Origin: a bacterium
GTDB taxonomy: Bacteria; Patescibacteriota; Microgenomatia; UBA1406; GWC2-37-13
NCBI GenBank assembly: GCA_037138475.1
Contig: JBAXII010000008.1
Span: forward strand, 8 to 64,007
Direction of reading: 5' to 3'
Length of the DNA: 64,000 nucleotides
Of the stretch, positions 31,912-58,017 are shown in pieces. Position 1 is the first letter of the stretch. Each line of letters opens with the position of its first letter. Under the pieces are notes generated by a model. The model was not told the DNA's origin and ran no database searches. It saw only the letters and a list, made by a program, of their open reading frames with translations. Position numbers and translations under genes: made by a program.

Positions 31912-31923
31912 ATACTGTTTGTG

Positions 31924-31996
31924 TCGGGATAGCGGGACTTGAACCCACGGTCTCTGGACCCCCAGCCCAGCGTTTTACCATCTAAACTATATCCCG
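31924..31996 (-). tRNA. tRNA-Pro (anticodon GGG)
   Basis: The manual cloverleaf folds cleanly: acceptor CGGGATA/TATCCCG, D-stem GTTT/AAAC, anticodon stem CTGGG/TCCAG, loop CTGGGGG, T-arm GTGGG-TTCAAGT-CCCGC, discriminator A. No encoded CCA. Confidence 0.9.
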
Positions 31997-34162: not shown

Positions 34163-34168
34163 TATAAT
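34163..34168 (+). promoter_or_regulatory. Candidate extended -10 (TGgTATAAT) for tRNA-Ala
   Basis: ctggtataat lies 21 nt upstream of the mature tRNA 5' end. No convincing -35 element. Confidence 0.35.
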
Positions 34169-34188: not shown

Positions 34189-34262
34189 GGGCCTGTAGTT
34201 CAGTTGGCTAGAACGCCTGGCTGGCAGTCAGGAGATCAGGGGTTCAAGTCCCCTCAGGTCCA
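34189..34262 (+). tRNA. tRNA-Ala (anticodon GGC)
   Basis: Acceptor GGGCCTG/CAGGTCC with the G3:U70 alanine identity pair. Anticodon loop CTGGCAG, T-arm AGGGG-TTCAAGT-CCCCT. No encoded CCA. Confidence 0.9.
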
Positions 34263-34312
34263 CTAAATTTCCTTGTTGTTAAAATCTGCCGAGCAAACTG
34301 CTATCATACCCT

Positions 34313-53865: not shown

Positions 53866-53997
53866 AAGTATGAAACCAATTGATGATGGCTTAGTTAGTA
53901 TACCATCGCGTGGCTTTGGTGGTGGCGGTTTATGCTCTTTTGGTGCGCAATTGAGTTGACAGCAAGGCAAAAACGGTCTAGGATAGAGCCACATTAT

Positions 53998-54516
53998 ATG
54001 GAAGAATCTGTGGATCAAATTTTACTTTCGTGGAAGGCACCCCTCCGCCCGTTTAAAAAGCAGTCGGCTGGTTTGTTGAGGTTCTTTTTGGCTGTTGCAC
54101 TGCTCCTTTCTCTCATACTCTTTTTTGTAGGTGACATGGTCACGCTTTTGCCTATGTGGGCGCTCCTTTTCCTCTTTTATGTATTTGCGATCACCCCTCC
54201 TCCCCTGACTGAGACTCACGTCACTCGTTTTGGAATCGAAAGTGCGGGGATCCTCATGCGATGGGACATCCTTTCGCACTACTACTTTGTGAAGCGGTTC
54301 GGCTATACCGTCCTGGTGACGGTGACACATGGACCGTACTTTGCTCACAGCTATTTTGTGGTACCTGACGAAACGACAAAAAGGCAGCTTATGGAGATTT
54401 TGAATAAGCACCTCATGTATATGAACCAGCCGCCACGAACGTTTACCGACAGGTTGATTGATCTGTTTTCAAAACTCGTCCCTGAAGATGAGGTAATGGT
54501 CACGCAGCCTGTGTGA
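53998..54516 (+). CDS. Hypothetical two-TM membrane protein
   Basis: LSWKAPLRPFKK, then two TM helices and a soluble C-terminal domain. Start trimmed to ATG 53998. Confidence 0.5.
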   Translation: MEESVDQILLSWKAPLRPFKKQSAGLLRFFLAVALLLSLILFFVGDMVTLLPMWALLFLFYVFAITPPPLTETHVTRFGIESAGILMRWDILSHYYFVKRFGYTVLVTVTHGPYFAHSYFVVPDETTKRQLMEILNKHLMYMNQPPRTFTDRLIDLFSKLVPEDEVMVTQPV

Positions 54517-55108
54517 TGGACTTGCCAAACACAGCTCCCGTCATCTCTGTCGCTCCCAGAAGTCTTCCCCAGGTACGCACACCTTCATCCTCTGTCACCA
54601 GTGTGGCGCCCTGCTCGACTGCGAGTAGGATCAACTGGAGATCAGCGAGACTATCTAAATATCCGGTGCGAGTGGCATTGCGATAGCGTGCACGCATGGC
54701 TTCCTTTGGTTGTTGGAGGGATTTTTGCCACTCCATCCGTGACTGGGGTGGTTGACCCATAGATGACTGGGTAGTTTTCTCCAGAATCTCCTCGGCCACA
54801 TGAAGTCCATCGAGCGAGCGTCGTCTCCCCTCAGATATATATTGGGCAAATACCGAGGCGGGGATGGTCATGCGGGATAGTTGCGGAGATTGTACGGTAA
54901 TACGCGCGAGGAACTGTTGGGCTCGCGCAAAGTCCTTTTTTTCAAACATGGTGAGGAGCTCCTCCGCTATCTCGGGAGGCATACAAAACTCTGCTCCCTT
55001 GCGTTGTATGGCTCCCTCCAATGCATCCATAACCTCAAATGGTCCCGCACCCAGGTTGATGTCTTTTTGAAAAGAGAAAAATATATTGGTGTCGATGGCG
55101 TATTTCAT
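54500..55108 (-). CDS. PIN_5/UPF0278-like protein, candidate RNA-free RNase P (HARP) homolog
   Basis: About 202 aa. YAIDTNIFF, AEFCMPPEIAEEL, and LILLAVEQGATLVTEDEGVRTWG parallel the Aquifex Aq_880-type layout (xLDTSVF ... AEFYMP ... SADEGLRxWA) as I remember it. Confidence 0.45.
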   Translation of the reverse strand: MKYAIDTNIFFSFQKDINLGAGPFEVMDALEGAIQRKGAEFCMPPEIAEELLTMFEKKDFARAQQFLARITVQSPQLSRMTIPASVFAQYISEGRRRSLDGLHVAEEILEKTTQSSMGQPPQSRMEWQKSLQQPKEAMRARYRNATRTGYLDSLADLQLILLAVEQGATLVTEDEGVRTWGRLLGATEMTGAVFGKSITQAA

Positions 55109-55271
55109 AAGCATAGTATACCGAATGTGCCCCATTTAGAGGGGGACATAGGAGGAGGTGCTGGAATAATGCGGTAAATATGCGGTTATATCCACCTTGA
55201 ATTATTGATGTTTGTGCGGTACTATACGCCTAATCGCGAAGCTTCGTCTTTGCAAAAGGAGATTTTACTCT

Positions 55272-56351
55272 ATGACAAAAAAAACCACCGCCACATCCAA
55301 CTCAATCATGTCTCAACTGATGGGGAAGAAGACCGAAAAGGCTCCCATCCTCCAGAAGAATGCTGAGATGCTTGCAGAGATCGTGGGTATAACTCGGAAC
55401 AACGTACAGTTTAATGTCGGAGGCAAGGCGCTTGCAGTCCTTGGTGATCGCGAAACTCGCGAGATCAGTACCTACCTGCCCTATCTGAAGGTGGGCGAGT
55501 CGATCAACGTCCGCGTAGTGTCCCCTGAGTGTAAAGATGGCTATCCAGTCGTCTCACTTGCGCGCTTCTTTAGCACTGGCAAATGGAAAATCCTCGCGGA
55601 TAAAAAAGCCGCTGAGGAGTCGATCGACGTCATGTGTGGCGAATATGGCAAAGGTGGAGTATTTATAGACTTTATGGGTGTCCGTGGTGTCATCCCAAAG
55701 ATCCAACTCATCCCTGAGCACATGAACTCACCTGAGAAACTGACTGGACAAAAGATCAAAGTCCGCGTCCTCGAGGTAGACGAGGTTAAAAACCGCCTCG
55801 TAGTATCTGAAAAGGCTGTCCTAAGCACTATGACCAACAAAGAGCTGACTGCTCAGTTTGGTGATGTGGCAGTCGGAGGTACCTATGACGCACTCGTCCT
55901 GGGCACTTCTGACTTTGGTATCTTCTGTGAGGTACACGGAGTCGAGGGACTCATCCACATATCTGAAATCTCATGGGAAAAGGTCACTGATGCGTCAGCA
56001 TTTGTTCGCATCGGCGAAACCATCAAGGTATATGTCGTCGAAAAGAATGATGTGGATATGAAGCTCAACCTCTCGCTCAAGAGATTGACCAATGATCCAT
56101 GGTCAAACATCGAGGAAACCTATCCAAAAGACAAGTTGTTTGAGGGCGAAGTAGTGCGCAAAGAGCGCTATGGATACTTTATCAAGCTTGCTCCTGGAGT
56201 CGAGGGACTCATCCATGTATCTAAACTCCGTGGAAATGAGAATCTGAATGTAGGACAAAAAGTCTCAGTCTATATCGAGCGCATCAACACCGCCGAAAGA
56301 CGCATGAGTCTGGTCCTCCCCGAGGCCCAAAAGCCAGTGATGTATCGATGA
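55272..56351 (+). CDS. rpsA: 30S ribosomal protein S1-like (four S1 domains)
   Basis: Repeated S1 OB motifs (GVFIDFMGVRGVIP, GIFCEVHGVEGLIHISE, GYFIKLAPGVEGLIHVSK). Start trimmed to ATG 55272. Confidence 0.85.
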   Translation: MTKKTTATSNSIMSQLMGKKTEKAPILQKNAEMLAEIVGITRNNVQFNVGGKALAVLGDRETREISTYLPYLKVGESINVRVVSPECKDGYPVVSLARFFSTGKWKILADKKAAEESIDVMCGEYGKGGVFIDFMGVRGVIPKIQLIPEHMNSPEKLTGQKIKVRVLEVDEVKNRLVVSEKAVLSTMTNKELTAQFGDVAVGGTYDALVLGTSDFGIFCEVHGVEGLIHISEISWEKVTDASAFVRIGETIKVYVVEKNDVDMKLNLSLKRLTNDPWSNIEETYPKDKLFEGEVVRKERYGYFIKLAPGVEGLIHVSKLRGNENLNVGQKVSVYIERINTAERRMSLVLPEAQKPVMYR

Positions 56352-57198: not shown

Positions 57199-58017
57199 AT
57201 GGAACAACACGCGATCCCCCGTGATATTACCGGCTTTCAGTTCAAACTCATTGGTCCGATGACTTTGAGGCAGTTTATGTACCTCGTGGTCGCCGCTTTG
57301 TTCGGCTACCTTATGACTATGATCGTGGGGAGCATTGTCACTGCTTTTTATATAGACATCATATGTGGGCTTTTGGTCTTTGGTGTGGGGTTGGCGTTTG
57401 CATTTATACCCATAAACGACCGTCCACTCGACTACTTTCTCAAAAATCTCTATAAAAAGCTGGTAAACCCTACCCAGTTTATCTATCACAAGGAGAACCT
57501 GCCCCTCAGGGTGCTGGAGGGAATGTATTACGAACAAGATCCTCATGTCTTGTTGGCACATGTGGATAGTCGCGAAAAGCTGGCGGCATATATAGCTGCT
57601 AAAAATCCACCCCCACCTGTTGAAGTAAAAAAACCCCTCCCACTTCCTCTACCTATGAGGGGTGCAAAGCCTGTAGCGAAGGTGGGGACAGTGGCCCAAG
57701 CGGCACCACAGACTACAGCCACAGCGACACCTGCGCCTACGGGTGAGCACCCCTGGATCAGTGGAGTGGTGCAAAACCGCAAACTTATTCCGCTTCCTGG
57801 AGTCCTCATCTATATCAAGGATGTGGCGACTAAAAAGAGCCTGCGCATACTCAAAACCAATCCACATGGAGTATTTGCGTCGTTTCATCCGCTACCGCCT
57901 GGTGAATATCTCATTGAGGTGACAGACACGGGCAAGAGCTACCAGTTTGATTCTAAGACGGTGACCATCGATCCAGCCAATCACCAATTTACCTTCACCT
58001 CACGAGAGATGATGTGA
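57199..58017 (+). CDS. PrgI-like (VirB3-analogous) membrane protein with a C-terminal carboxypeptidase-regulatory-like beta domain
   Basis: IPRDITGFQFKLIGPMTLRQFMYLVVAALFGYL is the PrgI-family N-terminus. Pro-rich linker. C-terminus GVVQN..PLPGVLIYIKD...TNPHGVFASF. Confidence 0.6.
   Translation: MEQHAIPRDITGFQFKLIGPMTLRQFMYLVVAALFGYLMTMIVGSIVTAFYIDIICGLLVFGVGLAFAFIPINDRPLDYFLKNLYKKLVNPTQFIYHKENLPLRVLEGMYYEQDPHVLLAHVDSREKLAAYIAAKNPPPPVEVKKPLPLPLPMRGAKPVAKVGTVAQAAPQTTATATPAPTGEHPWISGVVQNRKLIPLPGVLIYIKDVATKKSLRILKTNPHGVFASFHPLPPGEYLIEVTDTGKSYQFDSKTVTIDPANHQFTFTSREMM

Follow-up and report, generated by a model that had tools for sequence, protein, structure and literature searches.

RNase P RNA belongs to the small set of ribozymes that nearly all organisms have retained, and from each lineage that has discarded it one can learn by what route, and for what reason, its task can pass to a protein. 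An earlier note, made from the sequence alone, proposed that such a protein, an RNA-free ribonuclease P (RNase P) of the HARP type (PIN_5/UPF0278 family), is encoded at 54500-55108 of the stretch of bacterial DNA analysed here, which is 64,000 nucleotides (nt) long and is hereafter called the window (contig JBAXII010000008.1 of assembly GCA_037138475.1). The locus raises the question of whether the organism matures the 5' ends of its tRNAs with this protein alone or keeps, in addition, the ribonucleoprotein (RNP) form of the enzyme, whose RNA and protein components are encoded by rnpB and rnpA. The family assignment of the protein, the searches for both RNP genes in the genome and the distribution of the three genes across relatives together indicate that HARP is very probably the sole housekeeping RNase P of this organism and of its order, related public records of which carry the name Candidatus Roizmanbacteria (Microgenomates/OP11, candidate phyla radiation (CPR)/Patescibacteria).

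Identification of the HARP protein

By family profiles, predicted fold and conserved residues, the gene is a genuine HARP, as the earlier note had proposed. Indeed (i) the product matches PF08745 (PIN_5) over its full length with 116.4 bits (cut-off 27; E=1.5e-33), residues 12-207 of the 211-aa form being aligned to profile positions 2-200 of 205, and it scores 122 bits against the NCBIfam profile TIGR03875 (curated cut-off 95.3; E=2.2e-35); (ii) the PDB sequences matched by the single protein are all described as 'RNA-free ribonuclease P' (E 9e-21 to 3e-13), and a profile of ten members of the lineage retrieved seven HARP sequences from PDB (E 7e-44 to 6e-38), the one further match, to a PIN-domain protein (3ix7, E 2e-4), being weak; (iii) in the structural comparison that the earlier note had suggested, an AlphaFold2 model computed from 44 aligned relatives (mean pLDDT 92.5, pTM 0.85) was compared with PDB by Foldseek, and the first 34 matches were HARP chains, with TM scores of 0.80-0.88 (up to 0.82/0.88), from the Planctomycetes bacterium GWF2_40_8, Aquifex, Hydrogenobacter, Thermococcus and Halorhodospira. 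In the model, two long helices (residues 84-116 and 124-147) form the spike-helix insert, and the tip of this hairpin carries an insertion of ~13 residues relative to all solved HARPs, which is common to the lineage. The Aquifex aeolicus enzyme Aq_880 requires its C-terminal residues 177-191 (PMC8266387); the matching segment is present here and is modelled as a helix (residues 191-199).

The residues on which Aq_880 depends, namely D7, D138, D142, the Asp of the DEG motif and the spike-helix arginines R125/R129 (PMC8266387), correspond to D6, D152, D156, D174, R139 and R143 of the window protein, and these six are invariant in the alignment of the 44 relatives. Loss of the metal-binding aspartates, which the earlier note had named as evidence that would speak against a HARP, is therefore not observed. 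The fourth catalytic Asp of Aq_880 is given as D161 in the published work (PMC8266387), versus D160 by the present alignment. Furthermore, R139, R141, R143 and R147 of the spike-helix are aligned to R125, K127, R129 and R133 of Aq_880, in which the basic stretch binds pre-tRNA, with R125A/R129A data reported (PMC8266387).

The open reading frame (ORF) contains in-frame ATG codons at 55135, 55114 and 55108, of which the two upstream ones would give proteins of 211 or 204 aa. The start at 55108 is preferred because it fits the N-terminus of 33 relatives (M-x-K/R-Y/F-V/I-I/L-D-T-N). Translated from this codon, the product reads MKYAIDTNIFF...AEFCMPPEIAEEL...LILLAVEQGATLVTEDEGVRTWG, and its C-terminal part carries ...LILLAVEQGATLVTEDEGVRTWGRLLG... 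The motifs quoted in the earlier note occur in the order given there, with one correction: the element read as 'LLLAVE' is actually 'ILLAVE'. The ATG at 55108 has no recognizable Shine-Dalgarno sequence before it, and a strict two-hexamer promoter scan did not pick up the TATACT box that lies 7 nt upstream (Table 1). Given this candidate -10 box so near to the start codon and the missing Shine-Dalgarno sequence, the HARP mRNA may possibly be leaderless.

The best 120 homologues returned for the protein were Roizmanbacteria-type proteins only, which public records call 'RNA ligase partner protein', a name derived from archaea. Many of the metagenome-assembled genome (MAG) records that carry a HARP of this type are titled 'uncultured Gammaproteobacteria bacterium', and one 'Weeksellaceae'; these titles are evidently placeholders or errors.

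Search for the ribonucleoprotein enzyme in the genome

The genome to which the window belongs (1.10 Mb, 28 contigs, 96% complete) encodes 46 tRNA genes and a tmRNA. The earlier note had called for a search of this genome for RNase P RNA and rnpA, and neither gene was detectable. Indeed, RF00010, RF00011 and RF00373 gave no match in the whole genome (RF00011 and RF00373 at E<=1), and PF00825 (rnpA) gave none above its cut-off. The window itself was scanned with Rfam at gathering thresholds. Outside it, the 133 ORF-free stretches, defined as at least 300 nt without an ORF of at least 90 aa, were scanned against all Rfam families with permissive filters (E<=5); RNase P RNA was absent from the results, and the 23S, 16S and 5S rRNAs, the tmRNA and tRNAs were recovered as controls. 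In a motif scan of the genome, no CR-V core motif was found within 1 mismatch, while the control, an rnpB-positive relative (G003), contains an exact CR-I/CR-V pair. A search by nhmmer with four CPR rnpB sequences was uninformative, with no match even in the rnpB-positive G003.

The rpmH locus (contig C10) is consistent with these results: rpmH is followed by 102 nt, then by a short yidC and then by a jag/R3H gene, and rnpA is missing between them. The earlier note had distinguished two cases, a sole tRNA 5'-maturase if rnpB and rnpA were lacking and redundancy if both were present; with both undetectable, it is the former that applies to this genome.

Two kinds of candidate were considered and rejected. 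A putative rnpA relic at C13:6922-7068 (18 bits, 3 stops) is spurious, lying inside an opposite-strand ORF of 197 aa and far from rpmH. An 11-mer identical to CR-I occurs at C19:8102, and ORF-free regions contain near-matches; without a CR-V partner or an Rfam RNase P match, these were attributed to chance.

Two longer stretches, C17:16045-17551 (1.5 kb) and C18:8322-10154 (1.8 kb), contain neither an ORF of at least 90 aa nor an Rfam match (E<=5), and similar Rfam-negative stretches of ~1 kb are found at C13:23700-24790, C9:20875-21960 and C1:98136-99165. Such stretches could be unknown RNAs, decayed genes or clusters of small ORFs.

Distribution in the order, class and phylum

The distribution of the three genes was tallied over species-representative genomes, namely 151 from the window's order (68 genera) and samples of 401 or 201 from the phylum. 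HARP is a single-copy gene present in 147 of the 151 genomes of the order and in 68/68 genera; the four HARP-negative genomes are assemblies of 30-250 contigs. Within the phylum sample, HARP exceeded the cut-off in 4 of 401 genomes, all four from the window's order, and the lone sub-threshold match outside the order reached 19 bits. The earlier note described HARPs as sporadic in bacteria; here the gene is a trait of a whole CPR order and not a sporadic case.

The RNP genes have the opposite distribution. RF00010 detected rnpB in none of the 151 genomes of the order, versus 376/401 in the phylum sample, in which all four genomes of the own order were negative. Several genomes of the order are single-contig assemblies (G431, G441, G464, G466 and G434), so that an assembly gap does not account for the absence of rnpB. 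For rnpA, matches over the cut-off were obtained in 3/151 genomes of the order versus 193/201 in the phylum sample. The three rnpA contigs are L119 (G412:C7), L120 (G536:C86) and L121 (G415:C46); two of them are only 2.8-3.3 kb long and show a non-CPR arrangement rpmH-rnpA-yidD, followed in one by a long yidC and preceded in the other by dnaA, and are probably contaminants of their bins. Outside the order, the phylum-wide samples gave no HARP above the cut-off and rnpB in ~95% of genomes. Taken together, the counts for the order (HARP 147/151, rnpB 0/151, rnpA 3/151) against those for the phylum place the gain of HARP and the disappearance of both RNP genes at one and the same point, the base of the window's order.

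In a class-wide sample, the only full-length HARPs from outside the order were those of three genomes of family f159 (G560, G602 and G619) and of G861. The HARP gene of G861 lies at the very start of its contig. Judging from record names, many of the related records presumably stem from groundwater, aquifer sediment, a cold CO2 geyser and lakes.

tRNA genes and the need for 5' trimming

Both tRNA genes that the earlier note had placed in the window, tRNA-Pro and tRNA-Ala, are present and are presumed substrates of the enzyme (Table 1). A predicted promoter, TGGTATAAT, ends 21 nt before tRNA-Ala, with TATAAT at 34163-34168 and a predicted leader of ~14 nt. Throughout the genome, TGnTATAAT boxes lie at variable distance before the tRNA genes, giving predicted leaders of ~2-33 nt, and at least nine same-strand tRNA pairs or triplets occur, with spacers of 45-215 nt. 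Because the tRNA promoters lie at variable distances and tRNA genes are grouped in same-strand pairs and triplets, 5' trimming appears to be needed; these predicted promoters and clusters argue against a solution of the Nanoarchaeum type, with leaderless tRNAs.

The last T of the -10 boxes before tRNA genes lies at -9 to -12 in the rnpB-positive G003, corresponding to leaders of a few nt, versus -6 to -40 in the HARP genome, in a comparison of one genome of each kind. Depletion of encoded CCA was not found (10/46 tRNA genes versus 11/46 in G003), and an extension of the acceptor stem by a G:C pair at -1:73 was seen in neither genome. The tRNA-His gene (C23:1024-1100, minus strand) encodes its own CCA as well as a G at -1, which stands opposite C73. 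Bacterial RNase P cuts the tRNA-His precursor one position upstream, and an organism with HARP only must either do the same or add G-1 afterwards. The neighbourhoods of 80 Roizmanbacteria HARP genes contain one tRNA only.

Proposed function and alternative explanations

The explanation that we favour, HARP as the sole housekeeping RNase P, would work as follows. The protein would be a ~23-kDa PIN-like metallonuclease with a spike-helix insert, assembling as a homo-oligomer by analogy with the enzymes of Aquifex, Hydrogenobacter and Halorhodospira; HARP activity depends on such assembly, from tetramer to dodecamer. The basic face of the spike-helix (R139, R141, R143 and R147) would hold the elbow and acceptor stem of the pre-tRNA, D6, D152, D156 and D174 would hold the metal ions, and the phosphodiester 5' of tRNA position +1 would be hydrolysed. 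The tRNA-His precursor is predicted to be cut one position upstream, at the encoded G-1, because this nucleotide stands opposite C73. An ancestor of the order would have acquired HARP and lost rnpB and rnpA, so that the protein would have replaced the ribozyme across the lineage. We infer the oligomerisation, the pre-tRNA cleavage activity and the essentiality of the window HARP.

Several points weigh against this explanation. Four mesophilic bacterial HARPs oligomerised but showed no pre-tRNA cleavage in vitro (PMC12153264), so that membership of the family is no guarantee of RNase P activity. HARPs are reported to prefer A at position -1, and A(-1) in 38/44 pre-tRNAs of Aquifex has been read as co-evolution with HARP (PMC12439589); no such enrichment was found here (15/46 tRNA genes versus 38/44). 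The bias is a feature reported for Aquifex and does not define HARP-only bacteria. The -1 position is instead U-rich (T22 A15 C5 G4), as in the rnpB-positive G003 (T25 A13 C6 G2). One member of the order, G415, has its rnpA on an 11.8-kb, CPR-like contig with a short yidC. Finally, RNase P RNAs of the same class already depart from what Rfam models (E 1e-11 to 1e-42), which leaves a small formal chance of an extremely divergent RNA.

This last point leads to the first of two alternatives that we consider about equally improbable, in which a highly divergent RNase P RNA that is missed by all Rfam models has been kept, perhaps without RnpA or with another protein, and HARP is a nuclease in an accessory or back-up role, such as it has in Haloferax, Methanosarcina and most of the bacteria that carry it. 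Such a state would be in line with the weak RF00010 scores of the same-class RNAs, with two HARP-less genomes of the class that are likewise without a RF00010 match, with the several long ORF-free stretches without an Rfam match, and with the RNP form being the main enzyme in most HARP carriers described (PMC12153264). It would require, however, that an RNA recovered by the same method in 376/401 genomes of the phylum had escaped detection in all 151 genomes of the order, and that neither an RNase P family at E<=5 in the ORF-free stretches of at least 300 nt outside the window nor a CR-V core had remained recognizable. Moreover, rnpA was lost in parallel, rpmH now abutting yidC, and the occurrence of HARP in every genus with invariant catalytic residues is what would be expected of an essential gene.

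The other improbable alternative is that the protein is a nuclease of the HARP family whose main substrate is different, for example other small RNAs, and that tRNA 5' ends are produced by an unrecognised enzyme or else by trimming of the exonucleolytic or RNase E/J type. A role unrelated to tRNA has been put forward for the family, some bacterial members of which are inactive on pre-tRNA in vitro (PMC12153264), and both the leaders without a HARP-favourable A(-1) bias and the ~13-residue insertion at the spike-helix tip would fit it. Against these stand the residues for pre-tRNA binding and cleavage in Aq_880, which are all invariant here, and the gain of HARP at the same taxonomic boundary as the loss of the RNP; no second RNase P candidate was found, and the Rnl3 ligase, the proposed partner in an alternative role, is encoded in 0/151 genomes of the order.

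A further reading, of the protein as an ordinary PIN toxin of the VapC type that belongs to a toxin-antitoxin pair, is effectively refuted: the generic PIN similarity on which it could draw is sub-threshold (PF01850, 21 bits against a cut-off of 23.6; TIGR00028, 13.6 against 73.6), so that the better match to a VapC/PIN family named by the earlier note as counter-evidence is not observed beside the 116 bits for PIN_5, VapC structures stand far down the fold list (the first at E ~1e-3, with TM <0.5 versus 0.8-0.88 for HARPs), the 202-aa protein has a spike-helix insert of ~60 residues that is missing from VapC toxins, which are compact PIN domains of ~130 aa, no small antitoxin gene lies upstream, the neighbours being an S1-domain protein and a membrane protein, and the gene is conserved vertically as a single copy in 68/68 genera. 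There is likewise hardly any chance that rnpB and rnpA only seem to be absent because metagenome assemblies were incomplete or mis-binned, for although the genome is a 28-contig MAG with 96% completeness and the order includes four genomes without HARP and three with rnpA on short contigs, the absence extends over 151 genomes, five named above being single contigs, the rpmH-yidC junction is assembled and leaves no room for rnpA, and in other orders rnpB and rnpA are found in ~94-96% of genomes that are just as fragmented.

Features of the window and gene neighbourhood

Table 1. Position and strand of the HARP gene, its functional codons, its neighbours and the presumed tRNA substrates in the window
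Feature	Position	Strand	Evidence or remark
HARP coding sequence, 202 aa + stop	54500..55108	minus	ORF list, profile matches, PDB matches, predicted model
HARP stop codon	54500-54502	minus	
TATACT, candidate -10 box	55115..55120	minus	7 nt upstream of HARP ATG 55108; direct sequence reading
Asp6 codon (DTN motif), equivalent to Aq_880 D7	55091..55093	minus	invariant in 44 sequences
Basic R-A-R-Y-R-N-A-T-R stretch, spike-helix domain	54668..54694	minus	R139, R143, R147 invariant
Asp152 (LDS) to Asp156 (ADL) codons, equivalent to Aq_880 D138, D142	54641..54655	minus	D152, S153, D156 invariant columns
Asp174-Glu175-Gly176 (DEG) codons	54581..54589	minus	D174, G176 invariant; aligned to Aq_880 D160-E161-G162
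Predicted membrane protein, 194 aa, no Pfam family	53932..54516	plus	convergent with HARP, 3' ends overlap by 17 nt
Protein with several S1 RNA-binding domains	55212-56351	plus	divergent from HARP; near HARP in 2/80 related loci only
tRNA-Pro(GGG), presumed substrate	31923..31996	minus	ARAGORN, Rfam tRNA
tRNA-Ala(GGC), presumed substrate	34189..34263	plus	ARAGORN, Rfam tRNA

The gene of the 194-aa membrane protein is on the opposite strand to HARP in 79 of the 80 Roizmanbacteria HARP loci compared, and within 1.5 kb of it in 77. Because a weak homologue is also present in the rnpB-positive relative G003, no functional link between the membrane protein and HARP is claimed. The S1-domain gene and those coding for an AI-2E transporter and an oxidoreductase are not conserved beside HARP in these 80 loci. 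Further along the window, a plus-strand gene (57199-58017) encodes a 272-aa protein with an N-terminal PrgI-family domain (a membrane component of type IV secretion/conjugation) and a C-terminal carboxypeptidase-regulatory-like domain.

Implications

More than 150 Roizmanbacteria species representatives were sampled, and ~1,000 protein clusters (90% identity, lineages unsorted) match the HARP profile. We lean towards regarding Roizmanbacteria, a species-rich order of ultra-small CPR bacteria of groundwater and freshwater, as a HARP-only clade larger than any other known and as the first that is not from extreme habitats; in it, the ribozyme would have been fully replaced without Rnl3, an extreme habitat or a re-tuning of the tRNA leaders towards A(-1). 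If this is true, the long-tipped HARP would be an efficient housekeeping enzyme at moderate temperature, accepting precursors with U(-1) and with CCA, and the view of bacterial HARPs as rare, tied to extremophiles, partnered with a ligase and mostly redundant would have to be revised; the generalisations about extremophiles and the ligase are weakened by the window's order. The order also supplies a candidate HARP of non-thermophilic origin for which full competence is expected, in contrast to the mesophilic HARPs assayed to date, which proved inactive, and the lineage offers a natural test of whether co-evolution of the substrate towards A(-1) is needed, which is apparently not the case. As regards annotation, wherever a pipeline relies on rnpB or rnpA as a marker expected in every genome, Roizmanbacteria genomes will be scored as lacking it.

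Comparison with known HARP systems

The closest parallel is with the Aquificaceae, the reference HARP-only bacteria. Aq_880 of Aquifex aeolicus (PDB 7F3E, 8KD9) and the window HARP belong to the same family (PF08745/TIGR03875) and share the fold (TM 0.80-0.88); D7/D138/D142/D160 and R125/R129 of Aq_880 are matched in the window HARP, and neither genome has a detectable rnpB or rnpA, the rpmH locus being reduced and without rnpA. The two differ in that sequence identity is only ~25%, that the window HARP has ~13 extra residues at the spike-helix tip, that record names here point to groundwater and lakes and not to hyperthermophilic sources, and that the window lineage is without A(-1) enrichment and without the Rnl3 ligase.

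The best fold match is the HARP of the Planctomycetes bacterium GWF2_40_8 (PDB 7E8K, 7E8O; E 7.9e-14, TM 0.80/0.84, 29% identity), which also ranks second among PDB sequences by profile score (146 bits) and likewise comes from an uncultured bacterium, of another phylum. Hhal2243 of Halorhodospira halophila (PDB 7OG5), a member of the same family, is the best PDB match of the single sequence (E 9e-21). Halorhodospira, Thermodesulfatator indicus, Thioalkalivibrio and Methylacidiphilum keep functional rnpA and rnpB, whereas neither gene is detectable in the window genome; the four HARPs found inactive on pre-tRNA in vitro come from such RNP-keeping bacteria. Because no RNP genes are detectable, the window HARP does not appear to be redundant. 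The HARP of the archaeon Thermococcus celer (PDB 7E8J), also of the same family, is the best profile match (153 bits). Archaeal HARP carriers all keep the RNP enzyme and most carry the Rnl3 ligase, whereas Rnl3 (TIGR01209/PF18330) exceeded the cut-off in none of the 151 genomes of the window's order, the window genome included.

A recent survey counted 178 bacterial HARP instances, in a few, mostly extremophile orders, found Rnl3 in 89% of HARP-positive genomes, usually adjoining HARP in bacteria, and proposed a functional tie to the RNA ligase (Seshadri and Gopalan 2025, PMC12153264). It also linked HARP to hot, saline or alkaline habitats (PMC12153264), an ill fit with the groundwater and lake names of the records here. 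The clear HARP-only bacteria so far are the Aquificaceae and a few Nitrospirae, and reviews mention 'a few unclassified bacteria'. Daniels et al. 2019 reported some unclassified bacteria as HARP-only, with RnpA as the sole proxy, the RNA unsearched and the lineages unnamed in the text. In the indexed literature, no paper naming both Roizmanbacteria and RNase P and no relevant link between Patescibacteria and RNase P was found. The HARP-only state has therefore been hinted at in the literature, no CPR order having been reported to share it, and the window's order is very probably a new, large HARP-only clade.

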